DNA from: Psammoneis japonica
Lineage: Eukaryota
Assembly: GCA_008632985.1 (NCBI GenBank)
Contig: QPGO01000015.1
Location: 1-62,817, forward strand
Length of the DNA stretch: 62,817 nt
Reading direction: 5' to 3'
This document shows positions 21,779-62,817 of the stretch, piece by piece. The position numbers were made by a program, and so were the translations under genes. The number at the start of each line of letters is the position of its first letter. Within the stretch, counting starts at the first letter, position 1. The notes beneath the pieces are model-generated. The model made no database searches. It was not told the DNA's origin and was given only the letters and a program-made list of their open reading frames with translations.

Positions 21779-22829
21779 GGGACGGGGAGCTTGATGGGAG
21801 TAGGGAAAGATGCATGTCGCCAAAACAACTCTAGTAATGATAACGTGAAGGTTTAAACAAAGTTAAATGACATCGAATCGTTTCCTAAATCGGAGTGGCA
21901 AAAGCGGTGATAGATTGACACACTCGACTACATGCTAAATGAAAGTCGGCCAAATTATTGGACGATTTTCAGACGGATGTAATGGCTCTTAGGCTGCTTT
22001 GAACGGCTCAAAAACTATGAACGACTCTCCCTTCACCAGAGCAGTGTGATGCTGATGTAGACAGGACGGATATGAACACACCTTTCTTCTGTTGTTGAGG
22101 AATTTCTGCCAATGCCTTCATAATGAGTTTCACCAGCCAACTCTCTTGCTGCGACACATGCTGGCATTCCATGCGATGGTGAAGCAATTGCAATGGCGGT
22201 CAAGAAACAAACCCACATAATGACACCACCACTGCCAGTGACAAAGGGAGGGAGAATTGAGGAGCTGTTTCAGTGATTGTGCAAACGACGTGATGTTGCC
22301 CCCTCTTTCTTTCTTTTTCAACAGACCCCCATCTGCAATTGTCTCCTTGTGGCCACAGGTGTCAAGGTTGGCTTGGCAAATGACATGAGTTAAGCATGCA
22401 ACTTTATCGGTGTAAAAGAGAAAAACATGCCATGTGTGACTGTCATGCCCATCATGGTTGATCTTGACTTTGTCGCGGTTTGCAGCAGCGATGATCCACC
22501 TTCAGCAGCTGAGGATGCTGGCCTCAACTGAAGGTTTGAAATGTCATGGAGAATCCTGCTTGTTCAGTCTCTCTCTGCTCTCATGATGTTTAAAATGCTT
22601 GGTGTTGATGCAGCTGTGATCAATTGCCACAATTTGTTCATTTGCACTTGCCCACAGAAAAGACAATGCCCAAAAGACTGCAGCCAAAGAACAATTGGGG
22701 GGACTCAGAGACAGCAGCACCAGAGAGGCAGAGGCAGGGCCACACAAAAAGTGATGCAGCTTGATCTAAGGCACATCACAGGGGGGGGGCAGGGAGAAAA
22801 TAGAGCTGCAAAAAGGAAGCCACAAATCC

Positions 22830-23060
22830 ACGTGGTTTGTTTGTCCCACAGCCATGTCAGAAGTGGTTCAAGCATTGTCTTGAGAAAGATGTGCAAGCTG
22901 ACAGACAGAGATGAAGGCCACATGGAGCATGCGGCAACATGCATGGCATTCAGTGAACTTAATTTTTCATGCCAAAACCAAACAGTCATTTCAGTGGATG
23001 TTGTTGATGATGCTGAGATGACACCACAGATGCCATGTGCTCCAGCTCGAGAGTTGTCAA
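22830..23060 (+). repeat. Diverged direct repeat A, copy 1 (copy 2 at ~28690-28885)
   Basis: Collinear shared blocks: gtcagaagtggt, caagctga..., catggagcatg/catggaacatg, tggatgttgttgatgatgctga and gctcgagagtt/gctcaagagtt. Confidence 0.7.
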
Positions 23061-28689: not shown

Positions 28690-28885
28690 GTCATTGTTTG
28701 TTGGTCCTGTGAGTCAGAAGTGGTGTGAGCAGCCACAGATGTGCAAAAGGCACACAAGCTGATGGGCAGATGGAGGCTGCATGGAACATGATGTGCTGAA
28801 GTCCATTTCTTGTCAACAACAATGGATGTTGTTGATGATGCTGAAACAACACACATTGTGTGTTCTGGCTCAAGAGTTTTCATGA
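28690..28885 (+). repeat. Diverged direct repeat A, copy 2
   Basis: Collinear similarity to 22830-23060. Confidence 0.7.
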
Positions 28886-30769
28886 GCAGCCTTTAAAATT
28901 ACCCAAACCCACCCTGCATCAGCTGCAGGACTGTGGGGTCACTGCAGAATGTTCAAATCTGGGGTTAAAAAGGACTGGGAGTTCTCAACCTGACATGAGA
29001 GGATCTTGTTTCAATGGGCAGCTCATTGCTGTGGTGACACTGCAGCAAAGAGGAGCAACCAAAGGAGCATGAAGATGTGACTAAGTTGACAATGAAGTGC
29101 TGCACCAAGGAAATAAAAGACACTTGCAAATTTTGCAATGGTGTTGCTGATGTGATGCCCAACAGTCTGGTGGCAACAAGTCTGTCCAGCTTTGATCTGC
29201 ACCCTGACAGCATCAACACCTGCAGCCACAGATGTGATGATGACAGTGAGTTGTGTCAGATGGGGGTGAAATTCATGAGGGCAAGCCCTCCAAAACTCAT
29301 GGCCATGGCAAACAATGGACACAATTGAGACAACAAGTTGCCAGAGACAGAGGATGAGGACATTGGGGCACCAGCAAGATTGCTTTCCCACCACTGACAA
29401 AGGAGTTTGGAACACGTGGCATTTGACTTTGACAATGGGCAGACCTCTCTCCTCTGCATGTCAGGACAGCATTTGTGAGCCCTCAGAAACCTCCTGTGTG
29501 GCAAACAAAAAGTGCAAGGGAGGCCTTGACAAGATTCTCAAACAAGCAAAGCATGGCTCACCAAATGGCATTCTCTGAAACCTCTGCTGCATGATCAATG
29601 GCCACAATGGAGTTCAGCACAAAAAACCAGAAGAAGAGATTTGTGTCATGTGCCACCTCTGCCCAAGCTGGGGATGGACCTTGCCACAAAATTGCCAAGT
29701 GGATCACCTGGAACAAAGCTCAAGAAAGTTCAAAGAGAGTGCATGGCTCAACAGGCAAAAGCTTGCCAGCTGCCACACCAAGGTTGCACAGAGTGTGGCT
29801 GACCAGGAGAAGGCTGCTGCAGGCCATTGAACTGTGTCTTGCTCTGTTTGTGACCAAAATCTCACTGCCTCATTTGGGGAAAGCTCCCCTGTGGTTGGTG
29901 CAGCACAACCAGCTTTTTGCAATCAGCTGTTGTTGTTTTTCATGCCACAGCAGCATGCATCAAAGCATTGCTCAAGCACGCAAATGTTGCAGTGGATGGC
30001 CACATGTGATCTTGAAATTGCACACAAAACTTCTTCATGTTGGCACACTGTCTCACAAGAAATGTGGGTGCCTGGCAAAGGCCAAGAAGCAACGGCAGTG
30101 AAAACAACAAAAGACAACAAGGTGGGAGCAACCCCCAAGTCAAAAGCCAAGCAGCTGCCTTTTGAGGCTAATTTTGAGCCTTGCGCTTGAGACTCTCACC
30201 TTCCAAGTGACATCCCACACCAACAGCTCAGTTGAACAAGGGTGTGTTGGTCCCCAGTGACCCTTTGCCAGGAGATCCAGTGCACAGTGCAACAATCATG
30301 GCATCTGTGTGGGGCATTGCAAGCACCAGCTGTTGGCAATGCACTCCACTGCTGAGCTGACAAATGACCTCCCTTGATGCATCAATCACAGGCCCCAGCT
30401 AGCAGCACAGAGCTTGTGCAGCTCTTGTTTGTGTCAGCAGCTGGTGCAACTCTTCCTTGACACTGGCATCATGGTCATCATGTGCTGGAAGCAAGTTTGA
30501 AATTTTTGATTCTTCTCAGCACCTGCAAATGATGTGTTGAGAGATGTTGGTTTGCAATTTGTGCCACCTTTCAATGGCTTGCTGCTCTGACAGCACTTTT
30601 CACAAAACAACCACTGCCTCTTTGCCCAAGCATGCAGCAGGGCCAAGAGAGCACTTGTTGTGGCTCAGCACAGACTCAGCACTCCTTGAAAGAATGGGTT
30701 TTTAAGCAGGCAGAAAACAACAGAGCCGGGGTCATGAGAGGGACAACTGGCAGTGCAACACAAAAACAA

Positions 30770-31165
30770 TGAGTGACTGGGTGGGCAGCAAGTGTGGCAG
30801 TGCAGGCTCAGAGCCACAGATCTGCACAACCAAGATCAGCAACACAGCAAATCCCAGGGAAAATGGTGCTGAAGAAGACATCAACTTTGGCATGAGAATT
30901 GGGAACAATTGTGAGAATGGGAACAACATTGGTGATTGCAGTGTTCTGGATTTCAAGGCAGAAGAATGAGATCAGCACAACTCTCAAGGTGGGAAAGGCA
31001 GAAGGATGAATGGTGGGATTGGCTCACTCTAAAATGAGCGATGGCCCCATCACCAATCAAGGCAAATGGCAGCCATTTTCAGGAGATTTTTTTTCATGTC
31101 TGTTGGACCCAAAGATTGGAAGATGTTGTTTTGCATGTTTTTTGGAAACACCATGTGGGAGAGGA
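30770..31165 (+). repeat. Diverged direct repeat B, copy 1 (copy 2 at ~32075-32455)
   Basis: Shared blocks gagtgactg, aaccaagatcagc/aaccaaggtcagc, gctgaaga..catcaa..atgagaa.tgggaacaa, tcaccaatca, caggagat and gacccaaa...gaaacacca. Confidence 0.8.
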
Positions 31166-32074
31166 AACGGGGGTTGGGTTTGGGGATGCAACCACAGCCA
31201 GACAGAAAGACAAGGATGGGCAAGCCTTTGGACATTGATCAACAACACATTCATGCACACACCAGTGCCATCACAATGGGGCTTGTTGACTTCAATGTTC
31301 ATCTGAAACATTTCATTCATGACACCTCACTCTGCGGACTGGGGAAAGAACATGTGCACTGTGATGCTGCACCTTGCTGGACCTTGCTCTTTGAATGTGG
31401 TGTCAACAGGATCAAAGATGGAGGCACAATTGACAGGTTGAGAGCAGCGCATTTGCCAGAGCCTTGCTGTTGCAATGGGTGCCCAGTCTGCATTCTAACA
31501 GCCTGAAAACAAACCTCAACACTGACAAGATCCCACAAGCTTTCTTGGCTGCACAACATGATCATGAAGAAGGAGATCTTCTGAGTGCTGGTCTGGCACA
31601 CTCAACTGATGGCAGACCATTGTTCATGAATGTCCAACCAAACACAGCCCTGTCATGAAGCACAGATCCATCACTTCCAGCTGCAGCTTGCACAGAACAA
31701 TCTGATGTGCCAGCTCTGACAACAAAACATGAAATGCTGTGCAAGAGAATGGCATTGATTCCTGCTCTGGCAGCGCACCCAACCACTCCTTGATCATGTC
31801 TGGAAGAGGCAGGGGAACCTTCATGATGAGCATGGAGCAAGGCAGAGCAAAACTCCAGCACCCATTGTCAAGGGCAGAAAAATTTGTTACTTTGCTGAAC
31901 ACATTTCACAACAGCAACAACAACAACCATCATTTTTGCCCAAAACAAAAAGCAGATTTTGAGAGCACTTGTTGTGGTGGCTGGTCAGTCGCAAAAGAAC
32001 AGGTTTTCAAGCATGACAGAAAATGGCTCAGGCATGGGGTGAAAGGAACAATCAACAGGGCAGCATGTGAAATG

Positions 32075-32455
32075 TGAGTGACTGAAGAGGCAGCATGTGG
32101 TGCTGTGGATCCAGCAGCAGATCTTCTTTCAACCAAGGTCAGCGGCACAAACCTGAGGGAAAAGAGGGGCCGACACGCTGAAGATGGCATCAATTTCAGA
32201 ATGAGAACTGGGAACAACAATGATGAGAGCAGGAACAGTGTCAACAACCACAGTGCTCTGGATGTCACCAGAGGCAGAAGAGTGGGGGCGTCTGTGTGAG
32301 GTGCGCGGGGGGCGGGTTTTGGCGGCTGATTCCTGTCACCAATCACGATGCATGACCACAGCCGTTGGCAGGAGATCTGCCATGTTGTAAATCCAGACCC
32401 AAACATTAGAAGCTGTTGTTTCTACATGTTTGTTTTAGAAACACCAAGGGAGAGC
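32075..32455 (+). repeat. Diverged direct repeat B, copy 2, straddling the right edge of the TpA-depleted block
   Basis: Collinear with 30770-31165. Its distal part still carries TA and CG. Confidence 0.8.
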
Positions 32456-32724: not shown

Positions 32725-34395
32725 ATGCTAAAGAAGTTTTGGCGTTGTGCGCTCCTACTGGGACTTGTGGCAATAGTTGCCCCTACCACTGAGGCATCGG
32801 TGGAATCGATTCAAAGAACTGCTTTCTCGCCGAAACCCTATGTCACGGATATTAAGAACGGCGGTTCCTTGAACCCGGCTGTACATGCGAGCCTAAGAAA
32901 GGTCACGGAATCGTACCGTGGAGGTGGTGATTCGTCTGGCGAAAGCGACGCGCTGGTGGGTGCCGTTGCATTTACTGCCATCGACAAGATTTCTAGGGAG
33001 CTGTTCACGAAGTACAGCATCCCTTTCCCTTCTCAGTTGGGGGCATGCATGATCATGTTTACAACGATGGTGCTAGGCGAAGAGCTTGTACCTGGATTTG
33101 GAGATAAGATATTTTCCTTCTTGAATCCAGGTGCCCTTTTGTTGGCCAAGTGGCTTCCGGTGTTTTTCGTTCCTGGACTGGCGATGCTTCCACTGGCGCC
33201 ATCTATTGGATCTCCTATTGAGGTGCGTTGTATTGAAGCATTTATTATGTATCTTCTGGGACGTGATTCTGCTTAATGACGCCACTAACTTCTTCTCGCT
33301 TTTGTCGTACGCCCTTTGTATCCTACCGGTGACTAGGTTGTCAAGGTGCTTTCGGTGATTATCCTTGGCTTTATTTTCTCCTTAAGTTCCACGGCCTTTG
33401 CTGTGCTGGGCTTGAGGGCATCCATGGGGGCTGTAACGTCACCTGAAGCACCACCCCAGGTGCCGAAGCGCAGACAGGCGAAAGGAAATGATGCTCCCGC
33501 CCCCCCTCCCAAGGCCTTCTCAGACTCCACGATGGATTTCCTCCTCAAGGGAACAGTGTTGTCTGGAGCTATTAGCATAGCGGCATCACGCAATGATATG
33601 GACTGGGCAACGCCTCTCCGCACTATCAACATGCTTTTTGTTACTGTAACTTCGTACGTGTGGGGAGCTCGTTTACCGTCTGGGTTCAACAAGGTCGTGC
33701 ACCCACTCGTTACCAGCACTGGTTTGACCCTGGCTGCCATGGCAATCACTGGGTTTTGCACTGGCTCTACGTTCATGGATGTTTTACGGACGTACAAGGT
33801 GGGTTCTATGAGTCCACTTGAGACTGGTGCCGGTGACGTTTTGTTGTACCTCCTCGGCCCGGCTGTCGTGTCGTTTGCCATGTCAATGTACAGTCGGAAA
33901 ACTCTCTTGAAGGAAAATCTCTTTGTCGTTATTGTCGCCATGTTTGTTTCAAGTGTTGGGGGACTTTTTGGAACTGGCGCTTTTGTGCGCTTAATCAACC
34001 TAGGTGGTGCTAGTGACACATTTTTGCGTCGCTCGGTTTTGTCACGCAACGTTACAACTGCGCTGGCCATTGCTCTAACATCAATGATTGAAGGTAACCT
34101 CGCTATCGCCGCCAGCGTAGTGGTTTTGACCGGGATTATCGGTGCTACCTATGGGAGGACGCTACTAACAGCAATGGGGATTGAAGACCCTGTATCACGC
34201 GGCCTCGGACTTGGAGGTGCAGGTCAGGGGCTAGGGGTGGCTAGTATGATGAGTGAAAAGGACGCATTTCCTTTTGCGGCTGTATCTATGGTACTCACGG
34301 CGGTCTGCGCTACAACCCTGGTTTCAATTCCAGCTGTGAAGGATGCCCTTTTGAGTCTCGTGGGGCCTGTTACAGTAGCTCCAGTGACTGCGTAA
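32725..34395 (+). CDS. LrgB-domain membrane protein, PLGG1-like (plastid glycolate/glycerate translocator) paralog 1; intron 33223-33336
   Basis: IPFPSQLG, LLAKWLPVFFVPGL, KVVHPLV, GAGDVLLYLLGPAVVSFA, SRNVTTALA, SRGLGLG and EKDAFPFAAV motifs. Signal peptide. Confidence 0.9.
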
Positions 34396-36389: not shown

Positions 36390-37975
36390 GAGAGTTGGAA
36401 AAAAAAAAAGAGCTCGTCGCAAACAGCAAAATAGCACTAACACCATACCAGCGCTGTCGAGCCCTCTCCGACCCACCACACCCCCCATACCCCTACTATA
36501 CCGCCATATAACATCGCCCGTGCAGCGCAACGAGCGATGCAACCTCCCGCCGCGACGCTGTGGATCACGCCATTGTTGTCCTTGTTGGCCGCTCTTCACT
36601 CACGTAGAAACCCTACCACAACCTACGTGTCGACACACATCACACCCATCATCACACCCATCACACGTAGAAATCCTACCACGTTCTACGCTCCCGACAC
36701 CACCATCACGATGACCGAAAACGCCCACCATGACGCAACCGCGTCCTCCCTCGACGCATTTACCCTCCTCGACGACAACTCCCATACGGACTCCGACTCT
36801 GACCCCGAAACTAATGAGTCAATCTTCGACACTGCGGACACCACCGACGCAGCATCCGCTCCCTGCTCCCATCCGCTCCCTGCTCCCATCCGATCACGAC
36901 ATGCCTTGGGCCGACATCTCCATTGCCACACCCCTCAACCCTGCAGACGACACCGAGCATGAATCCATCAATTGCCGCCGAGTCTCCTCCATCAAAATCA
37001 AGGACATCGCCCCGCCAGACGCACCCCACCCCAACCTGGATTTTGACGAATCTCAGCACAGAAGCCGTCACGTCGTCGCTCAGCATCAGCTTCTCACAGC
37101 GCTGCGCAAGCAGGCCACTGAACACCACCACACAGCCTTCCGGGACCTCCGCACCCGCATTGACACCCCACAAGCCCAAATCCAAGCACAACACCTGACC
37201 GCACATCTCGTTGGCAACCTCGCACCCGGCACCCTGCCCCCACGAGCGACGCCTGGCACCTGCACGCACGCTCTTCCCTTTGACGCCTCTCACCAACTGT
37301 GCCTCTCCTCCTTTCCCCTTTTTCACAGGCCCGACAATTGGTGGGCACTGGTCCACACTGATTCGCCTCCGCCCCCTGCCCAACGGCGCGGTGCGATCAT
37401 GCCCTTTGCCATTTTGTTGCACTTGCCCCCACCACTGCCCGGCGCACGCACAAGCAACGCGCCGGGTGGCAATTTTTGTCGGAACCCTCACTGTCCCTTG
37501 GACCTGGCCAGACATGTGACCGACAACATGGCGGGGATCAGCAGTGCCAGGGGACACGGACATCGCGCCTTCGGCGCGATGCGCCGTGCTGGAGCTTCGT
37601 GCCAGAAAACCTGGGGGGCCTCGCTGTGCAATGCAGCCCCAGGTTCCCTGCCATTCTTGAGATGACAGGGCGGGGTGACATTCAAGGAGCCCGTCCTGGG
37701 CACAACGTCCTGGGGGCCTTTTCCAGACCTGAGCGGGCATCCTTGACCATGCGCATCAAGGGTGTCGACTGCCTGCAGGGGATCAGGTTTGGCTGCATCG
37801 CAGCCCCCTGGAGGTGACACATGCTTCAGTGGTCATTGGGGCCCCTGGCATGAACCAGGGAGAGCACAAAAGATGCTGCTGCCTCAACCCACTTGAAGTG
37901 GACACTGCACACACACACACACACACACCCAGCACTGGAGAGAGCAGGTCTGCCGATGAAGATTCCCCCAAGCTC
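36390..37975 (+). mobile_element. Degenerate C-rich retroelement-like fragment, TpA-depleted from ~36850 on; ends with a (CA)n tract
   Basis: Strong C/A strand skew, broken Pro/His/Thr-rich frames and an imperfect ~63-nt tandem duplication at 36600-36690. Family not identified. Confidence 0.5.
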
Positions 37976-38386
37976 TACTGCCACCCTCTATAGCTAGTAG
38001 AGAGTAGCTCCACTACTACTTAGCAGCTGCTGTAGCTCAAGAATGTATCTCTGTGAGTTCTAGACACCCTGCCTCCGCGATGTACGCCTGCTCCGGCAGG
38101 CTTCCTGAAATGCCCAGTTGAAGCTTGTACGCCCATAATTTATAAGACTTTGATGACGTCACGACTGGTGTTGGATTACCTATATGTCTATACTTGTATA
38201 GTATTATATATGTTTTGCCGCCATTTTTGTGTCGCGATCTCACTTTTCACATTCATCTTCAACCTGCTTCTTATTTTCGAACCTCATCGCGGCTCGAGGA
38301 TCTTCGCCAACCGTTACGTTGCTGCTGTCCTGTCTGACTTCAGCTTATTCCATTGCTTTCAATTGCTCGGGGCTTCCCAAACGAAA

Positions 38387-40042
38387 ATGTGGAAAGTTTC
38401 AGTTTGGCGGATCTTTGCCGCCACTCTTCTTCTGGTCGCATCCGATGCGTACTCCCCTCCGCACGTCTTTACAAGTCGGGGACACCAACACATTGGACAT
38501 GGAGCATTTCGTAGCTCGTCAATTCGCCTTTCACATAGAAGCCGAGTTTCTGGTAAGAAACTATTGGTTGGCATGTCAAAGCGCCGAGTCACAAAACAAC
38601 TGAGAATGTCGTCCAACGAAGAACCTACTGTCAAGGCGGTTGGAGCTACGTCGATGTTGGTTCTCTTTGACATTGGCTTTCGCAGGCTTTTCAAATTACT
38701 CTCGATATCATTTCCATCATCGTTGGCAGGCTGCGGTTTCTTGTTTGCGAGCCTTTTGACATTTCCAAAGGGTCAGCAGATTTACAATTTTCTTAGTCCA
38801 GGAGCGGCACTTTTGGCAAAGTGGTTACCTGTATTCTTTGTACCCAGCCTCATTACTCTACCATTGGCTGCAGATCTCGGAACGGCCGCCGAGGTAGGAT
38901 CTTAGCGCTTAAATGCTGAGAGATAAACGAACCATTCTGATGTATAACCTTCTTTGCTCCTTGCCAATTGCTCCTTGCTTTCATAGGTTGCAAAGATTGG
39001 AGTTGTTGTCGGCGGTGGTTTCTACTTTTCAGCGCTGACCACTGCATGGTCTGTGTTGGGAATCAGAAAGCTCGTATCCAGAAACAAGAGTGAAAGGATG
39101 GGTAATGATGCAACAAACACAGCTGATGAAGCTGATGAAATACCTGTGGTTGTCAATGGTGAATTTACTCCTGAAGAGAAAGCGCCATTTTCGGATGAAA
39201 CAGCTTCCTTGCTGAGAATCGTTTTGAGTCTCACTGCCTCTGCTGCGTTAGTGACCAGTACTTCACCGGATCATGCGCACCTTTTGAATCCAACGTGCTC
39301 GGCTTTCATGTTAACCGCGACTCTGCACAACTTTGTCTTTGGTGCCCGGTTGCCAAAAAAATTCACAAAGTTGGTCCACCCGCTCGTTACATGCACCGCT
39401 CTGACATGGGTTGCAGCAAAGCTTCTCGCTTTTGCAACCGAAACTTCCTTTAAATCTGTACTCAAGAAGTACCGCACGGGATCATTGGGTCTCTACACAG
39501 CAGGGGCGGGAGACATTCTCCTATTCTTGTTGGGTCCTGCGGTTGTGTCCTTGGCATGTCAAATGTACGACAGGAGGAAACTAATGAAGGAAAACATGGC
39601 AGAGGTGGCAACAGCGGTAGGAGTTTCATCCGTTGGCGGCTTGTTTGGTACTGCTGGGCTCGTACGGCTTTTGAATATTGGCAATCCTGTTGTCCGTCTT
39701 TCACTGTTATCAAGAAATATTACGTCTCCGCTGGCAATGGCCATTGCGTCGATACTCGGTGCAGATGTTTCGCTTGCCGTTACCATGGTGGTCCTGTCCG
39801 GTTTGATCGGTGCTAACTTCGGTGCATCAATTTTAGACGCATTTGGGATAAAAGACGCTGTCGCACGTGGTCTCGGAATTGGGGCGGCGGCGCATGGATT
39901 GGGAACAGCCGCCTTTGCGAACGAGAAAGATGCTTTTCCATTCGCGGCTATTGCAATGGCTTTGACTGCTTCTGCCACCACCGTTCTAGTCTCCATCTCT
40001 CCCATCAGGAAGGCGGTTATACAGCTAGCTTTGGGGTCTTAG
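38387..40042 (+). CDS. LrgB-domain PLGG1-like paralog 2; intron 38894-38986
   Basis: ISFPSSLAG, LLAKWLPVFFVPSL, KLVHPLV, GAGDILLFLLGPAVVSLA, SRNITSPLA and ARGLGIGAAAHGLGTA motifs. Signal peptide (SDA-Y). Confidence 0.9.
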
Positions 40043-41149: not shown

Positions 41150-42929
41150 GTGCTTTAGTCGCGGACCCTGATGAAAGGAGGAGACGAGGAGAAAGTTGGA
41201 GGTGTCTTCCTTGCTCGAACTTGTAGAGTCTTTAAATAGAAGATTAAGGGAGCCTATGTAGAGCGGAAGGGAACAGCAGAGGGAGGCACGGAGGTAGCTG
41301 TAGAGACGGTAGAGTAGAAGGGTCGAAGGACGCAAGACGAAGGGCGTTTTGAAGAAGGTATGGGTGAGGAGGGAGCAGGGAGAGAGGAAGTGAATCGGAG
41401 GATGTGCGTAGAAAGGTGAAGAACGACGTTGTAGCCAAGAGTTTGGGTGGCCCACTGGGATGGGGTGGCCGTACGGTAGGTGCTCCCAAAGCGATCGGCG
41501 GACAGGCGACGCCATGCGAAGTCAGCGGAGGGAAGGATTGCAGACGGAGACGACAAAGCGTAGAGGAAGGCGGAGTAGGAGGCATCGGAGTGACGAAAGT
41601 CAGAGGAAGAGGACCAGGGTGGCTTGGGCTGAGAGCAGACGGAGGAGGATGTAGAACCAAAGAGCAAGCGGTGAGCAAAGCAGCCGAGACCACCAAGGTG
41701 ATCTGCAGTGAAGGGGAGCAGGAAGATGCCATCGTTGTCAAGCGAAGAAACAACAAGGGATCAATCGGCAGAGGAAGTGGAGGGGCCAAGAAACTTCAAT
41801 CTTGCGCTCGAGTGGTGTGCCTCAGTTAAAATAGGAGAAGAGGGGGCAGGCAGACCTGGAGGAGGGCGAGAGGAAGCTTGAGGGACGGCAACGTCTGCTG
41901 CAATGTGGTGATGGCGGGAGGGAGCGGAAAGGGAGGCGGGAGGGGGAATTAAAATGCCGACATCGGCGGGACGGAGGAGCGGGCAGGTGGGGAGCAGGTT
42001 GGTGGGTTCGAGATGAACGTCATCAGGGGATCGACAGAACTCTGCAAGAGGACCCAAAGTTTGGGCTGGGATGAAAACAGCATCACGGAGACCATTGGAG
42101 AGCTTGGACTTGTGAGCACGGCGGCAAGAAAAGGCATGATCACCACAGGCATCCAGGATGGCATGGCCACAGGGACAGGGAGTGTTGACAAGGGACGGAG
42201 GAAGGATGGGGAGATGAAGCTTGCGAAGGGCGGCAATGACGTGGGCGTCCGAAGAAAGGCGGGAGCTTGGGAAGCGACGGGAGAAGGAATGAAGAGGGAG
42301 GCTTGCAAGCGGAGATGGCAATGAAGGGAGTGAAGATTGCACGTCGTAAGATGAGTTGGCAAGGATGGAGGTTGCTGCTTGCTGCTGATGTTCATGGCAG
42401 AGGCGACGAGCCAGGCCAGGAAGAGTGGCCGATTTAACCAGGGCAGCCAAGGAAGAAGAGGAAAGGGCAGAGGCGGAAGCCAGAACAGGAGCATGACGGC
42501 GGAAGAGCATGTGGAGTCATGGGGAAGAGCGAGGGTTGGACCAGGAAGACAGGGAGAGCTGAAAGCAGCGCAGAAGGGAAACAGAAGTGCCAGATGGCAG
42601 GCTGACACCGTGCGAAGCAAAGTGGAGCGAGCGGAGAAGCGACACCAAGAAGGAAGGAACGGCAGCAGCTGTTGGATCCCGGAGACCAAACCCGCCTGAG
42701 GAGGCAGGAAGGAAGGCAATGGCAATGGAATGGCCAGGAAAAGGAGCGGCGAAGGAAGTGACGCAGTGAAGAAAGCGGTGAGCAACGGTGAGGAGGAAAT
42801 CTTGAAATGGAGAGGTCCAGAGAAAGGGGTCGGGAGGATTGTCGGGGTCGAAGTTGCAGCAGAAGTCAGCCCCAAGGAGGTGAGCAGAGGATGGAAGAGA
42901 TTGATTGTTGGTTGGGGAAACAGCGCGAG
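41150..42929 (-). mobile_element. 5'-truncated non-LTR retrotransposon (CRE-like, restriction-like endonuclease), flanked by 5-bp direct repeat CGTTT
   Basis: GGFGLRDP RT-thumb-like motif, zinc knuckle CPCG...DACGDHAFSC, RLE motif RPADV...AADVAV and FLLPFTADHLGGLG; several frameshifts. CGTTT occurs at 41145-41149 and 42930-42934. Confidence 0.8.
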
Positions 42930-43465
42930 CGTTTCTTGAACTTAGAAACTTGGACGGAATGAACTTGCTGCCGACATGACGTCAGCGGTGCTGACGACAC
43001 GACGCACGATAACAGCATGGAGTTACGACTAGCACAATGTGAACTGTAAAAAACGTCCCGAACACCCGTATCGCATTTTTTGTACATCTATATTTAACGA
43101 TAACGTCTTTTAGCAAATAATTAGGGCATTTTTACAGATGTAACCCATACAATTTTTACTCAAAAATCGATACTTGTAACACAATTAGAAGATTTTTTAA
43201 TGTTTCCTATTCAAATTGAGAGTCAAATTTTGATATTACTTTTTCAACTCCGACTGCTTCATAATCAATAAACAAGTTCGAATATTTTATTAAAAGACGT
43301 GGCCGGCGTTTAGGTCCATTTTGGCGGCTCCGACATTTGAGTTTACTTAACACCAGACATTTCTATAGGACTTAAGTTCGTAGAGCAATAAATACGTAGA
43401 CTGGTACAAATTCTACATCAGGAGTCATGTGCAGTCATTTTACATACCAATCATACAGACATTTA

Positions 43466-44479
43466 CTATATATTTAAATACAAAGTATTCAGTTTGTAAT
43501 AGTCTATTTTGCACATTGTGCTAGTCGGTAGCCTCATAGGGCCCCAAACGACAAACGAGCAAAACGTGACTCGGTCGAGCGTTGGCCTCCGTCCAAACAT
43601 TGTCTCAACAAGATTTACACAACAATCACAAGTTGTGTCGCCCACTCGTTCCCAGCAAACACCGCACGTCAAAAGAGTTGCAGGGGACACGGCTGTGTGA
43701 CCGACGATGCCCTTTCGCTTGTCTGCACGCACAACCTGCTTCAGACCTGGCATGTCATCTCCATTGTTGACTGCAGCTTTCTTTTTATCGTCGTCCAATG
43801 AAACAATCAAGGATGCTGACTGGCTCACATTTATTTCTTGACACGTCTCGTTGAACCCATCTTGGAATTTTTCCCAGAGTGGCTTTTTCTTGCGAGCCGT
43901 TGACGATGGCGCATCGCCTGAACGGCCCATTAACTTCCACACCATTTTGCACTTCTCTTTAGTCATTAGCCCAGCACAATTTATGTCGTCATCATCACAC
44001 AACTCTTCAACTGACAACCGACATGCCTTTTGCTTGCAGTGGGTGGCAAGAAATTGAGAAGCTTCTTGAAACTTGAGCGACAACTCTGACTCCAGAAGTT
44101 GCATGAGAGGACGTGCACTGCCCATAAACAGTGACGCAATGTCCTCAATAGGATCAATCGATTTGAATTCTTTTCCTGTGAGTTTTTGCACCCTCTCGCG
44201 ACATCCCTGAATCTCTGCTTTGGCCGTCTCCCACACCTTTTGGGGAGCTTGGCTAAAGGCAATCTTGACATCTTTCCCATCATTGTCCACTTTCCATTTT
44301 GGACGGTCCTTTGACTGCTCGGTTCTATCACACTTATCCATCAAGCTGTCCTCAATCAAGTGGAGATCCTCGTCGCAAAAATTCAAGTCCTCTGTTGGAT
44401 TGAAATGCTCCACCCAATCTGATTCGGACGTCGTCACCGAGTGCAACGCCGATTCATCCATTGGTGCAAGTGAACTCAT
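43466..44479 (-). pseudogene. Truncated, mutated DDD transposase fragment (piggyBac-like)
   Basis: IVSLDDDK motif. The frame drifts after VTFCS, where D-R-G-Y would be expected. Cys-rich and Tyr-free over most of its length, and TpA-depleted. Confidence 0.55.
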
Positions 44480-44978
44480 GCATGGACTGAAATCTCAGTG
44501 TCGTCTTATGCAGGTAGAATCAGGGATGTGTGATTGTAAGACTTGGTTGGCAGCATAAAAAAATAGAAAGTGCACAAACTCGGTTGATTGCTGAGAATTC
44601 AAATTCGAGAATTCTTCCTTCAGCATGACCTCATCGTAGACTCTGTGCATGCAATGACCTTTGTACCAGGACAGCGTACAAGTCTACGAGCAGAAAAGCG
44701 GCGCGCTGCGGTTTCAGACGCAGCAACTACGGCGTTGATCCAGAACGACGCCATTGTCTCTTTTCGTTTGAGAGGTTCATGAATCTTGTTGGCATGGAAA
44801 CGTGCATCTACAGGATTTGCTGGTACAGTCCTACGTAGCCTCCTTTCGTGCCCCTGTGGGCACGAACGGACAAAAAACAGACGAAAATCTTCACGGGGGA
44901 TATCGAGCGCAGGAAAGTTCGATGCGATGGCGTGAGTAACTTATATGTCGCGTTATCGTCACCTTCCAAATCGATCTT

Positions 44979-54848: not shown

Positions 54849-55358
54849 CTGTAGAGTGCGCGAAACGTCAGAATTGCGCGTTGGCGAAAACCACAACTTT
54901 TTTTCTCTCCTCCCGCAGCCGCACATCCCGAGTTTTGCAATTGACAACGCTTTTGGCCTCAAACGGCGGCGAACAAGGCATCGGCAGAACCGCAATCATT
55001 GTAAGAACATGTGTGTTGCTTTGTTTGTGAAAATCCACAATGAGTTCGTCGAGAAAAGTGAATCTCGTAGTCGTTTTGCGTGCAATTTCGCGTTGGGTGT
55101 TCCCGAGAACGCGGTTGCTTTTTCGATTTAGCGTTGTCCTTGCACGGAGAAACGCTGAATCGCAGCTTTGTTGCAATGTGCATCTTGCCCACATGCTGGA
55201 TCTTGGGATGCGTCTGTCTCGGCGTCGCCAGCTCATTGTTGTTGCTTCAAAGAGGATCCGCTCCGGGCTGTCCAAGGCACGGAACGTCTCTTTGTTGTGT
55301 TTGAAAGAGATTCGTTGCTTTGAATTTTTCAAAACGGGGATCTCGGTGTCGTGAAATC
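54849..55358 (+). repeat. Left inverted repeat arm (hypermutated copy, ~54-nt internal deletion)
   Basis: Manual alignment to the reverse complement of 59347-59910. Confidence 0.95.
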
Positions 55359-55464
55359 GTTGTGTGTCATCGGTGTTGTTGCCGCAGCATCCGTCTGTCA
55401 TGGCTCTAATGGCATGTTTGCCTTTTCTCGTTCCTTGAGTGCAGGTTTTGCATCACGTGGCACC

Positions 55465-57720
55465 ATGAAGAAATCCATCTCTCAACGAACTTCATCTAGG
55501 AAGAGGCAACCAACAGTGGAAGCTAGGTTGGGTGAAGAGAACAGAAAGGACCAAGCTGGAGCCCGCAAGAAACGCAGTGACAGCCGTGGAAGAAAGCACC
55601 GGTTGGATCTCCCGTTGTCACCAGACAGTGACGATGCGGACGCATTGTTGAAAACACCAAGCATTTTCTCCAATGCCAACAGACAAAAATCGGGAAAGAA
55701 ATCCTCCTCTTCTAGGTCGAGAAGCTCAAAGTCATCATCGTCATCCAAGAAGACACCCGGGTCGCGTTCAGATTCCGGCAATGCATCCATTGATTTGGAA
55801 GAGAGAGAGCACACCATCTATGATCTGGATGCTTCACATGTCACAGTTGGGTTGTGCTTGCACGATGAACGAAAAACAAGCAGTCCCAAGTTCACCACCC
55901 CGTTTAACTTTCGCGATGGACCCAACAGAGGGCAGGATTTGGTGTCGATTGCATCACTCGGCACTGGCTCCACCACAGAAGAAGTCGAGTCAGAATTGGA
56001 CGCACTCCTTTCTGCCAAAGGAAAGAAACTGATGCCGCACAAGACTTCAAACTCGAAGCCACGCTGCAGAGCTGACCCCCAGATGGCGGATCCTCCAGGC
56101 AAGTGTGGTTCAAGCCGTGTGACGCCCACAGTTGCAGAGGCGCATTGGATGCATGCTCTGACTCATGTGTCGTACAAGAATTGTGATGACGAAGGAGACA
56201 TGGCTGATGATGAGAGTCAGTCTGACCCTTCTAGTGTCATTCTAGACCTGATCTGTGTTGTTGGGAACATTCAAGACGGAACAAGCACGGGGCAAGCATC
56301 CAGGAAAAGAGGAACACAAGACGAAGAGCTGTCATTGGCCTTGTGCCTTTTGCCTCCCGCAACGAACAAGGATGGAACGCATGTTGTTGCAGGTGAGAAA
56401 GACGCGCAGCATGTTGCCACTCTAGAACCATCGGCTGATGGTGGCAGGGTTCAATGGAGTCTCGTGTGCAGCACTGTGTTGTGTGCGGCTGTCGAGGATC
56501 AACGGCACAAGGACAAAGATGGGAACTCGTACGTGGGAAAGAAGTCGTCATTGTTGCTTGTGGAGGATTTTTCAAAAGCTCAAGTGAAGCTTCTCAACTC
56601 CACTGAGCATTTGTTTTCGGAAGCTCACAGGCGTGTCAAGGCAAAAAGCAAACCGCCTGAGGCACGGGATCCAAAATGCGCCTTCCTTCGTCTGTCTGTT
56701 GGAAAGAAGAAGAAAACCGATGAGCCGTGGGATGATGATGAGGAACCATCCATTCCCAGCTCCCAGGATGACAGAGTTGCAGCACTGCTCTCTCCCGAGA
56801 AAGCAGTGAAACCCCGCACTGCAAGAGAAACGCGAGAATTCGACGCGGAGGCTCCTGGAGAAGTTGTCAAATTCATGAAAAAATTGGTTAGCACCGACAT
56901 TGATTGCAACCCTTTTTATCATGCTCTCACGTTGGAACACTGGAAAGCATGTAGACGGCATTGGGGCAACAGGACATCCATCGACGGCGAATGGCAGTTG
57001 CACATTTTTGAGGCGTATGAGCTGGACCCTGAAAAGCCAGACACATGGCCGAACATTGATCTCGTGGCTCCAGAGGTTCATCCTTCTATGACCGAAGATG
57101 ATGGCAGGTGTGGCGGATCAATCCAAAGAGGTGCGCATGAGGTGCAAGGAAACGGGTTGCCCAAATCACACGGCGAGGATCCGGACGTGGCAAATGAAGC
57201 GGGAAGGAACAAAGCAATGGAGCGGATGGCGGAAGGCCAAGTCAATGCAGCTGCAGCTGTCCTGGCCCTGGCCAAAGCAAAAAGTGGACATTTTTTGGCT
57301 CCGGATGAAATGTTTGTCCATGTGATCAACACGGAATCAGAACGCACCGTGGGCATTTCGGTTCCATTCTCAGCAACCAAAACTGTTTGCACCGAGATCT
57401 ACGACAACAGGAGACCGACAGATGCAAATGTTCGCAGTTGGTCAAAGGAAATTGTGAGGTCTGTTCGCAGCAAAGAAAAGGTGGTGCAGATTCACCTTTG
57501 GAACTCTTTGACCAACACAAGCGTCCTTTCATGGTTGGTGGAAGAGCTGAAGACACTTGCAATTGCGGAGTTGTTTCGCGCGGCACCAAAAGATGAAAAC
57601 AACAAACCAAAAGAACCAATCATTCTACACTTGGTGGTGGAAGATGTGGACGCACCATCCGACACTTCCGTGCTCTGGCAGACAAAGCGTAGATGGGGCA
57701 TTTCAAAACTTTGGTCATGA
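55465..57720 (+). CDS. Transposon-borne ORF of unknown function (~750 aa), probably mutated
   Basis: Long open frame inside the TIRs with a basic/Ser-rich N-terminus. Tyr-poor and TpA-depleted. Confidence 0.6.
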   Translation: MKKSISQRTSSRKRQPTVEARLGEENRKDQAGARKKRSDSRGRKHRLDLPLSPDSDDADALLKTPSIFSNANRQKSGKKSSSSRSRSSKSSSSSKKTPGSRSDSGNASIDLEEREHTIYDLDASHVTVGLCLHDERKTSSPKFTTPFNFRDGPNRGQDLVSIASLGTGSTTEEVESELDALLSAKGKKLMPHKTSNSKPRCRADPQMADPPGKCGSSRVTPTVAEAHWMHALTHVSYKNCDDEGDMADDESQSDPSSVILDLICVVGNIQDGTSTGQASRKRGTQDEELSLALCLLPPATNKDGTHVVAGEKDAQHVATLEPSADGGRVQWSLVCSTVLCAAVEDQRHKDKDGNSYVGKKSSLLLVEDFSKAQVKLLNSTEHLFSEAHRRVKAKSKPPEARDPKCAFLRLSVGKKKKTDEPWDDDEEPSIPSSQDDRVAALLSPEKAVKPRTARETREFDAEAPGEVVKFMKKLVSTDIDCNPFYHALTLEHWKACRRHWGNRTSIDGEWQLHIFEAYELDPEKPDTWPNIDLVAPEVHPSMTEDDGRCGGSIQRGAHEVQGNGLPKSHGEDPDVANEAGRNKAMERMAEGQVNAAAAVLALAKAKSGHFLAPDEMFVHVINTESERTVGISVPFSATKTVCTEIYDNRRPTDANVRSWSKEIVRSVRSKEKVVQIHLWNSLTNTSVLSWLVEELKTLAIAELFRAAPKDENNKPKEPIILHLVVEDVDAPSDTSVLWQTKRRWGISKLWS

Positions 57721-57889
57721 CTGTTCGTACACTGCAAACAGATTGGTCATTGACTGGACGGACCATCCGATGCCTCCGTGCTCTGCCAGCAGATAAACCA
57801 CACATGGCGGCATTTTAAAACTGCAGTCATGGCTGCTCGCACACGTTCTAGATGGATCAGCTAGACGGAGCACAACTGTGTGTTTTAGT

Positions 57890-59274
57890 CTAGTCTGACA
57901 TGACACAGCTGCTCGAACAGCTGTGTTGAATCCTCCAACACAGCTGAGGAAGAATTCTTCCTCAGCATCCCCCGTCTTCCTTTCCTGATTGTCATCGCAC
58001 CCTGGCACCCCACACTTGCGAAAATGGTTCCTGGCTTTTCGTGGCGTCATCTCTTCCAATGCCAGCTCGTGCGCCATTGACCAATTCATGCCTTCTTCAC
58101 AAGAAAAACGCTTCAGGCCGGACTTGCAAACAGAGAAGTGGCACTCAATTGGATTCAAAACAGGGCTGCAAGCTGCTGCACAAACTGGCTTGGCTCCAGC
58201 ATCTTCAATCAGTTGTCGAACGCAGTCGGAGATGTGTGTCGATGCGCTGTCCATCAGCACCACAGACCGCGGCTCGCAAAGATGACACCTCCCCAGAACC
58301 GGCACCAAATCATTCTCAACGTGTCTCTCAAACCTTTCCATGTCCACAGTCCCACGTTCCGGGTCATTGTCATGAGGGCCACATTCACGTTCCACCAGCA
58401 TGCACGCTTCGATCACAAAACCGTTTGCATCTGCAGCACCAATCACAGTGCACCTCTTGCGAAAATCTTCCTCAAAACATGCATCAACTGCGGGTGGTTT
58501 GCCAAATTTTCCCCAGCCACGCAAACGCCTGGATGCGTTGGCACTCTTTGCCGTCTCATCAACAAAGACAGCCATCTCTGGTTTTTCTACGAACAACTCC
58601 AGCCGTCAAAAGCACCTCTCCCGCTCGGCCTCGCATCTTTGTCTTGAACGAAAAACCATTTTTTGAAGAGAGCAGCCTGGTCGGTGCAATTGACGCCATG
58701 TGGCAGAGGGGTGCCATGTCATGCCCCGGCGTCGTCTCATTGAAAGCTGCATTTCATCGAGGTGGAGATGCGGCTTCTCTCTCACGACATCAAGCAGCAC
58801 TTCATCATCCGCCTCTGAAAATGATGCAGCTCTTGTTGTCACTCCGCGACGCCTTTTCCAGCTGTTCATTCTACGGCGAGTGGCAGCTTTTGTCTCACCA
58901 TGCTGAAGGCAGTGGTGAAACCAGTCATAAAATGTCTTGCACTTGATCCTCCGGCCAAACATCTGATCAACTTCTTCCCAAACAGATTTGAGAAGACGGA
59001 TTTTCCCACCATCCTTCTGTGCATGCTGCCACGCATTGTCCCCCAGTTTTTCCATTGCAGTCTCAACACACTCCTTCTGCAGTTTCTTGTCGTCGTGCGC
59101 TGTGCCACCACACTGTCTGGGTGCATTCGGCCTGTTGCACGTGTGATGCCGAACTCCGGGAGCAACCCAAACCCCATGCATCATGTCCCATCTTTGTGCC
59201 TCTCCAAAATTGTCACCCTCCCCCGCAGCAAACAACTCAGCTGCTGTTGCCATGAGACACAGAAAGGTTGTGAC
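57890..59274 (-). pseudogene. IS630/Tc1 DD34E transposase pseudogene
   Basis: KPHLHLDEMQ (HTH), AVFVDET, VVLMDSASTH and ACSPVLNPIE, with 34 residues between the second D and E. In-frame TGA at 58606-58608, probably from CGA. Ends are approximate. Confidence 0.85.
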
Positions 59275-59346
59275 CATGATCAACACTCGACAAAGCCTGC
59301 ACTTCAAGCAACGAGAAAAAGGCAAACATGCCGTTAGATTGGCGAT

Positions 59347-59910
59347 GATTTCACGACGCCGAGATCCCCGTTTTGAAAAATTCAAAGCAACGAATCTCTT
59401 TTAAACACAATAAAGAGACGTTCCGTGCCTTGGATGGCCCGGAGCGGATCCTCTTTGAAGCAACAACAATGAGCTCTGGCAAACACAACACACAGCAGCG
59501 ACCAAAAAATGAGCAATAAAACGATTTGTCGTGACGCCGAGACAGACGCATCCCAAGATCCAGCATATAGACAAGATATATATTACAATAAAGCTGCGAT
59601 TCAGCGTTTCTCCGTACAAGGATAACGCTAAATCGAAAAAGCAATCGCGTTCTCGGGAACACCCAACGCGAAATTGCACGCAAAACGACTACGAGATTCA
59701 CTTTTCTCGACGAATTCATTACGGATTTTCACAAACAAAGCAATACACATGTTCTTACAATGATTACGGTTCTACCGATGCCTTGTTCGCCGCCGTTTGA
59801 GGCCAAAAGCGTCGTCAATTGCAAAACTCGGGATGTGCGGCTGCGGGAGGAGAGAAAAAAAGTTGTGGTTTTCGCCAACGCGCAATTCTGACGTTTCGCG
59901 CATTCTACAG
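59347..59910 (-). repeat. Right inverted repeat arm (largely unmutated copy)
   Basis: Reverse complement of 54849-55358; retains TpA sites. Confidence 0.95.
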
Positions 59911-60933
59911 GGAGATGCAAGAAAAATCGAAATTTTCATTTTTCCTTGCTTTTTCCCGCTTTTTCGAACACCACGCGGTCACGCGGTGCGCCTTTTTGTT
60001 CTTCGTCTTGCGGAGATAAGCACGATGCGAATGCGAATGAACCGACAGCACTGCTGTTCCGAAATCCGTTCCGACCCTGCTGTGTTAGCCACTGGATGAC
60101 TGTCTGGGCTTAATGTACTGTGGCTTTGGATGGGTGCATTGACATGGTGAGTGTATGCTTCTGTGGTCATCGTGTGCTTGATGTTTTGTATTCTTACCAA
60201 GTGATGCTGGCTGCGTGCCACAGCGACCGCGGGCGGTAGGCAGAAGTTTTTGTCGCCGCAGGTGGATTCAGTTTCTGCGGACCTGTTGGGGTTCTCATCT
60301 GTTCAGAGTGTAGTCAAAATTGTTTTTCGTGGATAGGCCTTTTCAAAGATTCCCTTCGGGTACGGTTTGGGTACGATTCGGGAACGCTTTTGGAACGTTC
60401 CGAGAACGGTCAAAATGCGGGAATGACGAAATGCCTATTTCGTCGAATGGTTTTTCAATGTTGGAGCTGTTGGTGATTGTTATAGAGCATATTTAGTGTA
60501 AAGCTAGCCCAGCAGTTACAATACATTATAATAGATTAACTACAGCTGCTGTAATTGAAAAGTATTAAGGCTTCTAAGAACCGTACTTTTTTGGGGAGAA
60601 AATAAAAACCGGTTTTGACAGGTGTACCTCTCAGCAATATGCCAATCAAATCCATTTAAATTTTACATTGCTGTGTCATGCTCGGATAGTTTGAACAATA
60701 ATACGGTCATAATGATGCATCATCTTTCCCATTGGCTGATTGTCAGGCTCCAAAGTTGGCTCTCAGCGCGAATTAGTGTATTTGAGAACGTTCTCGGAAC
60801 GCTTTTGGAACGATCTTGGAACGTTTTTAGTACGATCTGCAAGGGAATCTCGAAATCCACTACATCGAAATAGTCCCCCCCAAGAGGCCTTTGTTGGTTT
60901 TGGCAGTTGGAGTTATTTGGCGGTATTTGAATT

Positions 60934-61322
60934 TGAAATAGACTATCCCGCAAGAAGTAGAGGGGTGAGAGGGTCGTTAATGATTCAAATCGGAGTTCTC
61001 ATCAACTCATCAGCCTTCCGAAGCGAACTCGGTCGACTTGGGATACAACAATACGCTGTGTAGGATGGAGAGTTCAGGACTCTCTTGAGGTTGTACAATA
61101 CAGCAGAGGATGATAAGAAGTAGTTTTGGGACAATAAGATACGCTAAAGATACGAATTGTGAGAAGATCTCACGAGGGATTGGAGATGACATTATGACCT
61201 AACGGTCGTGTGTGTCACTCCGATTACTATCGCTAGAAGACTCAACGGACATTTCTTCCGGAAGAAGAGATCCATGACCGGAAGCGTCATCCGTGAATCA
61301 GACTCGGTTGTTGACTCGTGAC
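60934..61322 (-). repeat. Probable 3' LTR of the Copia element
   Basis: Follows the purine tract GAGAGGGAG (~61323-61331, minus strand) just after the pol stop. The ...TTTCA end at 60934 is a guess, since the second LTR is not in the window. Confidence 0.5.
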
Positions 61323-61359
61323 TCTCCCTCTCAACCGAAAAGAGAAGGAGAACTGTCAG

Positions 61360-62817
61360 TCACCAGCCCATGAGGGCTTTGCGACCAGTGCGGAATAGAT
61401 CAACAGTCAATCCTTTAGTAAACTGGTCAGCAAGCTGTGCAGCTGAGCTCACAGGCTCAATTTTGATCTCCAAAGCCTCAACTTCAGTGCGAAACCAATG
61501 GCAGGGAATGCCGATGTGCTTGGTTCGTGGGGACAATTTTGGCACACGGGCGAATTGGAGGCAGGCAGCATTATCTTCGTACACAACGGATGCTGGGAGG
61601 TTAGTAGAGTCAATGGGAGAATCCTCAGTTCCGTCGTTGGCGTGTCGGAAAGCCTTCGAATGTGTCGAAATGTCGGTCTGTCTGTCCGGCTGTCCGAAAA
61701 CGAGCGCGTTGATTTCCTTCACGATCTCGCGAAGGGGGATGAGATCACGCATCGCTTGGGAGAGGGCGACATACTCGGCTTCCATGGTAGAGAGTGCGAC
61801 GAGGGTCTGCAACTTGGACACCCAGACAATCGGACATCCAGCATAACAAATGACATGTCCCGCACGTGACTCAACAGACGTGGGATCTTGTCCATCTTCA
61901 ACACTGAAGAGTCCCGCGAAATCAGCATCAACATGGCAGTCGAGTCGTTGATCGGCGGTTGGAGTTAGGATAAGTCCTTTATCAGCCGCATCCTTCAGGC
62001 AACGAAGAATGCGCTTGATGGCCGCAGCGTGGGAGGCCTTGGGTGCGCAGGAGAACCGCGCGACTTGATGGGTCGCGCAAGCAATGTCCGGGCGGCTGTT
62101 GGACGCTAGATGCATCAGCATGCCGACCACGGAACGGCAGTCATAAGGCTCGTCGAATGGTGGCCCGTCGGCATCGCTGCCAGCAGGAGTGGGCAAGGCA
62201 GGAGTGGGTGCGCCGTTGCACTTGGTCATCTGTGCGGTGCGGAGAACTTTCTCAATTAGGCCGGGTTGGGTCAGGAGGAATCGGCCGTCTTCGAGCTTTT
62301 GAATCTTGACACCTAGAAAGTTGCCGACTTCGCCTTCATCACGTAGATCAAAGACATGGCGTTGCTCATCATTGGAAATGCCCAACTTGGCAATCTCTGC
62401 TTCCAAGGCTTGGGCCGATGCGCCGGCGAACACTGTGTCATCAACATGCACCACACATGACATGCCCTTTTTGAAATAAAGACAAGGGTCAATGGCGGAT
62501 TGAATCCATCCTCTTTCGAGCAATCCGTCCCTCAGCTTTTCACAGAAGCACTTGGGAGACTGGCGTAGGCCGTGTGGGCCTTTCAACAATTTTGGCACCA
62601 GATCGGTGCCCGATTTTGGCTGGAAACCCTTGGGAGGCTCTACATGGACCTTCTCCTTGATGTCAGCTTGGCAGAAGGCTGTGGCACAGTCCACTTGACG
62701 TGTGGTCCAACCTTCCTTGAGTGCCGTGGTGAGGAGAAGGCGCATGGACGACCATTGCACTGCCGGCGCGCAGGTCTCGAAAAAATCGATCCCGTGTTTC
62801 TGCAAATCGCCGCGAAC
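61360..62817 (-). mobile_element. Ty1/Copia (CoDi-like) pol 3' part, RT + RNase H; open frame but with many mutated conserved residues; runs off the window
   Basis: GIDFFET(C)AP, (H)GLRQSP, IDPCLY, V(H)VDD, RPDIA, (H)VDADFAG, VALSTMEAEYVALS, YEDNAAC, RTKHI and QLADQFTKGL. Confidence 0.96.

Follow-up and report, generated by a model that had tools for sequence, protein, structure and literature searches.

Hypermutation directed at TpA dinucleotides has so far been reported only in Bigelowiella natans, an alga unrelated to the organism considered here, in which de novo TpA>TpG/CpA changes occur in integrated viral DNA (Mettrop et al., bioRxiv 10.64898/2026.01.13.699255). According to the available text of that report, 231 of 302 de novo nuclear mutations in B. 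natans lines fell within two integrated viral regions, and all but one of those 231 were A>G or T>C, with all of the A>G and T>C changes located at TpA (10.64898/2026.01.13.699255). The same text describes an enrichment of reverse transcriptase (RT) and DDE domains among TpA-depleted coding sequences (CDS) of B. natans, and proposes an ADAT2-like deaminase for this organism (10.64898/2026.01.13.699255). Repeat-induced point mutation (RIP), known from ascomycete fungi, ruins mobile elements through CpA to TpA transitions, which raise TpA content and make stop codons. In animals, APOBEC and ADAR enzymes leave deaminase hypermutation in integrated retroelement copies, where the strand-specific marks are connected with reverse transcription or RNA.

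Here, we document a TpA-depletion signature, together with its direction, strand symmetry, confinement to tracts and wider sequence context, in DNA from a diatom-like stramenopile (the window, i.e., the whole stretch of 62,817 nucleotides that was analyzed). The named relatives of a host LrgB-type gene in the window are all diatoms (Seminavis, Cylindrotheca, Thalassiosira, Cyclotella, Mediolabrus and Bacillariaceae; 60%–67% identity), and its best match shares 73% identity. The genes found in this window are long and have almost no introns. Dinucleotide profiles of host DNA in the window gave O/E ratios of ~0.6 for TpA and ~1.0 for CpG, whereas TA O/E was 0.03–0.28 in a series of tracts (Table 1), in which TG/CA was elevated to 1.3–2.0. 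TpA depletion and a gain of CpA/TpG hence coincide in discrete tracts, as in B. natans. The Copia copy that lies at the end of the window is very likely a dead retrotransposon that was subjected to a DNA-level TpA>TpG/CpA process aimed at mobile DNA.

Table 1. Coordinates and properties of features in the 62,817-nucleotide window
Feature	Coordinates	Strand	Properties
10-kb block	22122–32388		TpA O/E ~0.05, TG/CA ~1.9; CpG ~0.05 within 22490–32140
ORF in 10-kb block	23208–23645	plus	CCVHVDDD motif
First LrgB-type gene	33424–34395		
Overlapping ORFs	36715–37755	both	314–316 codons
TA-free block	36813–37975		1.16 kb, zero TA; CpG density normal (60+ sites)
Second LrgB-type gene	38153–40042		
TpA-poor block	41653–42942		1.3 kb, 5 TA; CpG normal; ORF with Cys/His cluster, no Pfam match
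TA-rich island	43001–43500		52 TAs per 500 bp
Partly TpA-depleted block	43538–44506		TpA O/E 0.14–0.34; CpG normal
Tc1-like DNA transposon	54849–59910		Bounded by inverted repeats
Inverted repeats of Tc1-like element	54849–55358 and 59347–59910		About 510–560 bp, 86% identity
Left counterpart of outer right inverted repeat	54849–55250		TAs lost
TpA-depleted tract in Tc1-like element	54860–59500		35 TA versus ~163 expected at host O/E; CpG normal
ORF carried by Tc1-like element	55414–57720	plus	768 codons; conserved uncharacterized family, no Pfam domain, 43 relatives
Transposase	57715–59385	minus	HTH region and DDE_3; one in-frame stop at 58606–58608
Outer 400 bp of right inverted repeat	59500–59910		18 TAs retained, 6 of them RTAY
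Segment adjoining Copia ORF end	60400–61330		Very high contig depth; probable 3' LTR
Copia (RVT_2) reverse transcriptase/RNase H frame	61360–62817	minus	485 open codons, cut off by window end

The Copia frame matched the Pfam RVT_2 domain at 103.8 bits (cut-off 31.6), and a search of a protein collection identified 2014 relatives at E ≤1e-10, the best of which was ~61% identical. In an alignment with 63 of the best 120 of these 2014 relatives (mostly full-query coverage, about 47%–62% identity), the RNase H region was colinear with the relatives, over all 485 residues of the frame, which ends in LMGW like the consensus. The catalytic YVDD motif reads HVDD (VHVDD) in this copy, at a column where 98% of relatives carry Tyr. 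Judged by its sequence, the copy is a member of the Copia family by descent, but is predicted to be inactive. The segment adjoining the end of the ORF is probably the 3' LTR of the element; no second LTR is present within the window, which does not reach the 5' part of the element.

Conserved Tyr residues of the Copia copy had originally been predicted to read systematically as Cys or His. All 12 of the motifs listed could be located against the consensus, 11 of them in columns with at least 60% Tyr; for the DIACA motif, Tyr is the majority consensus residue, yet the column is absent from the ≥60% Tyr list. A putative LY to PH change was traced to the codons CCA CAC, each one TA>CA step from CTA TAC. 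The frame was also expected to have only five Tyr left and plentiful CpG, and we counted exactly 5 Tyr and 98 CpG sites (O/E 0.91). TpA in the frame amounts to 21 sites (O/E 0.28; Poisson P = 1e-4), with TG at 1.41 and CA at 1.20. At columns with at least 80% agreement among relatives, the Copia copy retains 197 of 227 residues. This retention is very unevenly distributed, with 196/218 non-Tyr columns retained, compared to a single Tyr at the nine Tyr columns, where the remaining residues are Cys (five) and His (three) (Fisher P = 3e-7). Lowering the threshold to 70% yielded 15 Tyr columns, three of which are upstream of the window end, while the 12 aligned columns hold 5 Cys, 6 His and 1 Tyr. 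In no case had Tyr been replaced by Phe, Ser, Asn or Asp.

To characterize the substitution spectrum, we sought, for each of the 60 columns where the Copia copy differs from a consensus of at least 60%, a single-base change that would convert a codon of the consensus into that of the copy. Steps of the form T[A>G] or [T>C]A explained 22 columns and CpG decay explained 1, while 21 columns involved other one-step changes and 16 were multi-step. TA-type changes consequently make up 22/44 one-step amino acid changes, compared to 6/190 in the same analysis of eight unaffected control relatives for which DNA was available (8 of 16 loci used; L003, L010, L014, L015, L020, L025, L049 and L077 were left out based on codon mapping). 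Beyond Tyr, TA-type changes include CTA>CCA (Leu>Pro, two cases), GTA>GCA and seven A>G changes at first codon positions (producing Thr>Ala, Ile>Val and Lys>Glu) that follow a codon ending in T; of the nine first-position A>G changes in total, just two lack this T.

In the homologous region of 80 metagenomic relatives, the median TA O/E was 0.66, and only 2 had values of 0.28 or lower. Depletion was observed in two distant Copia sequences from metagenomes, namely L049 (positions 419–1789; TpA O/E 0.05, CpG O/E 0.22), with four Cys/His at Tyr columns, and L077 (positions 399–1775; TpA O/E 0.18, CpG O/E 0.10), with two. Going by these two sequences, the TpA signature may be present in other environmental eukaryotes. 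When L049, L077 and the Copia DNA were compared with the 80 loci by blastn, no DNA relatives near enough for polarization emerged, and the best DNA-level relatives were ~65%–77% identical over short stretches only.

The transposase of the neighboring Tc1-like element matched DDE_3 at 46 bits (cut-off 28.6), with residues D13, D116 and E151 invariant in the alignment. The DDE_3 domain, the acidic residues and the terminal inverted repeats (TIRs) identify the element as Tc1/mariner-like, although no clear target-site duplication (TA) was found at its ends. The TpA deficit across its tract is highly significant (Poisson P = 4e-34). The original prediction had extended the Tyr pattern to this transposase, and the alignment bears this out: compared to 10 homologues, 0/9 Tyr columns are retained (5 Cys, 3 His and 1 Arg), and 15/26 one-step changes are TA-type. 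The in-frame stop is the only one in the 556-codon transposase frame, and requires a change of the G>A/C>T class, because A>G and T>C cannot make stops. In the 768-codon ORF carried by the same element, one of five Tyr columns is kept, three read His and one reads Trp. A C-terminal module of this ORF (~100 residues, about positions 630–750) is present in up to 10 repeats in the 3765-residue protein P0253.

The two TIRs of the Tc1-like element have 28 mismatches over 512 aligned columns. Fifteen of these are TG/CA in the left TIR and TA in the right, none are the reverse, and four are CpG-type. Different copies were expected to carry different subsets of the changes, and the 15:0 ratio agrees with this for the sole comparison made, between the two TIRs of one element. 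At one site, TG in one arm is paired with CA in the other, which indicates that both arms changed from the same ancestor. The direction of change, TA>TG/CA, is accordingly established as proposed at the outset, based on conserved Tyr, Leu, Ile, Thr and Lys columns and on this TIR site, where ancestral states are those of the protein consensus and one TIR pair. The outer 400 bp of the right TIR retained TAs that its left counterpart lost (Table 1), and the hypermutated tract therefore ends inside the Tc1-like element.

Further tracts are located between 22 and 45 kb in the window. In the 10-kb block, the CpG-poor zone starts 250–370 bp inside the TpA-poor zone at both ends. One ORF of the block contains a motif (Table 1) that resembles the YVDD polymerase motif with Tyr>His. 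Pfam returned only one weak RING match for the 18 ORFs in this block that are free of stops and at least 110 aa long. The block was also rejected as a recognizable member of the Copia family, as tblastn with 120 Copia relatives found only the known copy in the window. No LTRs or large repeats were detected in the 21.5–33 kb or 36–45.5 kb regions, and the repeat search returned just three short tandem arrays. The 10-kb block could be an old retroelement or viral insert.

The TA-free block is situated between two LrgB-type genes (plastid glycolate/glycerate translocator-like) that are 5 kb apart, the second of which is preceded by an LrgA-like ORF. The overlapping ORFs in this region, which are on opposite strands and have no Pfam match, probably stem from only TGA stops remaining. 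The same region exhibits a strong C/G strand skew (−0.24). Downstream, the TA-rich island is flanked by the two TpA-poor blocks.

The loss of TpA depended on the neighboring bases. RTAY sites occur at a density of 7–23 per kb in host DNA and 0–2 per kb in tracts. Relative to host density, surviving RTAY sites were at 0.07 times in the Tc1 tract, 0.11 times in the Copia copy and zero in both the small blocks and the 10-kb block. The corresponding values for RTAR/YTAY sites were 0.14, 0.42, 0.25 and 0.05, and those for YTAR sites were 0.52, 0.59, 0.42 and 0.35. Pooled surviving TAs were distributed 6/56/57 among RTAY, mixed and YTAR contexts, versus 37/61/20 expected from a baseline of host DNA, as opposed to ancestors of the elements (P = 6e-21). 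The shift for the Copia ORF alone, compared to its own relatives, was not significant (P = 0.13). The greater loss of RTAY than YTAR implies that either strand is more readily attacked at a T with a purine before it or, equivalently, at an A with a pyrimidine after it. TAY codons always supply this favored half-site, which accounts for the loss of Tyr being more complete than that of TpA in general.

Both strands were affected alike, with Cys:His ratios of 5:6 in the Copia copy and 5:3 in the transposase, and TG counts approximating CA counts in the larger tracts. This equality, together with the involvement of a DNA transposon and its non-coding repeats, indicates a process that acts on double-stranded DNA rather than RNA editing with subsequent reverse transcription. 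In the Copia copy, transposase and TIRs, with the control relatives for comparison, changes almost exclusively of the A>G/T>C type at TpA were found on both strands, as described for B. natans. A check of the codon table showed that stops cannot arise from any sense codon via A>G or T>C, although they can via C>T or G>A. Hence, heavily damaged frames remain open. Tract edges differ from element edges, as neither the probable LTR nor the outer right TIR was hit (the former is free of hypermutation, with 16 RTAY sites at a host-like density). This sparing, which simple whole-element targeting does not predict, counts against the explanation favored here.

According to the original prediction, the TpA process is separate from CpG decay, and acts earlier or faster. 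The first part is upheld by five tracts without TpA that have host-level CpG. For the second, the tract pattern (five TA-only, one without both, none CpG-only in the window) and the nested CpG-poor zone of the 10-kb block fit the proposed order, but different targeting would fit just as well. Copies were compared using contigs of one public sample, possibly the source of the assembly itself, which includes many paralogous copies. Changes in these contigs versus the window comprised 178 A>G, 184 T>C, 156 C>T and 159 G>A, and 19–34 of each transversion. Among the 40 listed of 910 copy-to-copy differences, 19 were CG<->TG/CA and 11 were TA<->TG/CA, suggesting that CpG change is also under way in these families. 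CpG decay via 5-methylcytosine deamination gives similar TG/CA end products and is seen in the 22–32 kb block, where CpG loss would represent ordinary 5-methylcytosine decay on top of the TpA process. Neither the Copia copy nor the Tc1-like tract shows CpG decay in bulk (CpG O/E 0.8–1.0).

The TpA process envisaged here would work in tracts of ~1–10 kb, on both strands alike, with a preference for 5'-R-T-A-Y-3', and would spare CpG. As only A>G and T>C changes would be made, Tyr codons (TAY) would be wiped out, Leu, Ile and Val codons (NTA) would be damaged, and codons starting with A behind a T-ending codon would also be altered. The predicted outcome is a long open frame coding for a protein with a ruined active site. 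Tentatively, the chemistry could be deamination of adenine to hypoxanthine at T-A-Y on either strand by a TadA/ADAT-type enzyme, which would be fixed as G at replication. Chemistry of this kind would agree with all of the observations made here on strands, stops, context and tracts. By analogy with fungal RIP, although with the opposite base change, the process may constitute a form of genome defence.

The TpA signature cannot distinguish an attack on A from an attack on T, because TA is its own reverse complement, and R-T-A and T-A-Y are consequently one observation made from opposite strands. This leaves room for oxidation of thymine by a TET/JBP-type enzyme in R-T-A, where the resulting 5-hydroxymethyl- or 5-formyl-uracil would pair with G to give T>C, under the same defence logic. 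In dinoflagellate DNA, 5-hydroxymethyluracil favors TpA, which adds to the case for thymine. Nonetheless, the T-A-Y preference resembles the natural TadA substrate context, U33-A34-C35, and we consider thymine attack unlikely. Adenine deamination is, moreover, the sole published proposal for the signature, going by the available text of the B. natans report (10.64898/2026.01.13.699255).

The affected copy could alternatively have been born mutated, if double-stranded transposon RNA was A-to-I edited, reverse-transcribed and integrated. The unmutated state of the probable LTR by the Copia ORF is in keeping with such an origin, as is the preference of ADAR-type enzymes for a 5' U mentioned in the available text on B. 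natans (10.64898/2026.01.13.699255). However, RNA editing predicts sense-strand A>G changes, and only Tyr>Cys, whereas the Copia copy has 5 Cys and 6 His. It is further contradicted by blocks without RT that are also affected, and by a DNA transposon that carries the signature, including in non-coding repeats that differ from each other. ADAR-type editing fixed by retrotransposition was rejected, since changes were neither sense-only nor retroelement-only, and we regard an origin from edited RNA as very improbable. There is also little to recommend the idea that Cys and His reflect the family itself and not damage, whether normal for the lineage at these positions or a result of selection to avoid TA. 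Although L049 and L077 kept several Tyr at TA O/E values of 0.05–0.18, which could speak for such a property, the catalytic YVDD is altered to HVDD, and 51 of the 63 relatives have no Cys/His at Tyr columns, with one such residue in 11 relatives and two in the one that remains. In addition, unrelated elements and non-coding repeats nearby exhibit the same loss, making a family property highly unlikely.

A technical origin was considered because the sole public run containing this stretch is from one sample, possibly the assembly's own source, and modified TpA bases in silenced DNA might be miscalled in long reads. Basecalling error would not be expected to give near-complete conversion with sharp boundaries, or frames of 485 and 768 codons free of indels, however, and similar TpA/CpG depletion is found in two metagenome relatives. 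De novo changes were also seen in Illumina-sequenced lines of B. natans, according to the available text (10.64898/2026.01.13.699255), and a sequencing or assembly artefact thus seems barely credible. Every change is AT>GC, as would be expected from GC-biased gene conversion, or from a regional AT>GC bias in repeats, without any TpA-directed enzyme. Such a bias is exceedingly improbable, given that ApT O/E in tracts is 0.82–0.88 while TpA falls to 0.03–0.2, that the GC content of tracts approximates that of the host, and that it would not generate the gradient from RTAY to YTAR.

The DNA-level TpA process favored here shares with RIP transitions that affect both strands alike, are specific to a dinucleotide and ruin mobile elements within tracts. 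Fungal RIP itself was rejected, as its C:G>T:A changes are the opposite of those found: TpA is destroyed here rather than raised, and the TpA process cannot make stop codons, whereas RIP does. APOBEC and ADAR activity is comparable in that deaminase-type hypermutation is recorded in integrated copies, and in the 5' U favored by ADAR, but here both strands and a DNA transposon are affected. The closest match is with B. natans, where, in the available text, nearly all changes are likewise A>G or T>C at TpA, occur on both strands and lie in tracts of foreign DNA, and where RT and DDE domains among TpA-depleted CDS parallel the Copia RT and DDE_3 transposase here (10.64898/2026.01.13.699255). The two systems nonetheless differ in several respects. 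The host is a chlorarachniophyte (Rhizaria) in one case and a diatom-like stramenopile in the other, and what is hit here comprises a Copia element, a Tc1-like element and several further blocks. An NCLDV insert in B. natans is at 0.45, based on the available text, compared to near-complete loss here (10.64898/2026.01.13.699255). De novo events were measured in B. natans, while the end state alone is known here. The RTAY to YTAR gradient and a block that also lacks CpG were observed here, and a term search of the available main text on B. natans did not return "context", "trinucleotide", "CpG" or "diatom" (10.64898/2026.01.13.699255).

We found no report of TpA hypermutation in diatoms in the literature searched, which excluded most subscription journals, and terms for it did not occur in the available text of the diatom papers PMC2806351, PMC8147415, 10.1101/2025.10.24.684338 and PMC6604790. 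The best reading is a tract-wise hypermutation of mobile DNA, directed at TpA at the DNA level as in B. natans, but with a diatom-like host and an additional R-T-A-Y preference.

If the diatom placement is true, a process known from one chlorarachniophyte also runs in a major algal group, and is not a one-species curiosity. The enzyme would represent a naturally occurring A:T>G:C editor of DNA, and the R-T-A-Y preference limits the candidates. Tools for transformation and gene knockout exist for diatoms, making it feasible to find this enzyme. Long ORFs without stops persist in several frames of hypermutated tracts (e.g., the overlapping ORFs of 309–316 codons at 36.7–37.8 kb). Gene predictors will annotate false or dead genes in such tracts, which Pfam misses, and divergence dating will overestimate the age of hypermutated transposon copies. 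More broadly, there is a fair, though less than even, chance that TpA editing at R-T-A-Y is a genome defence common to stramenopiles and Rhizaria, either ancient in SAR or spread through it. Such a defence would be independent of cytosine methylation, and possibly earlier, would leave stop-free "ghost" ORFs from transposons and viral inserts, and would represent the adenine-side counterpart of RIP.
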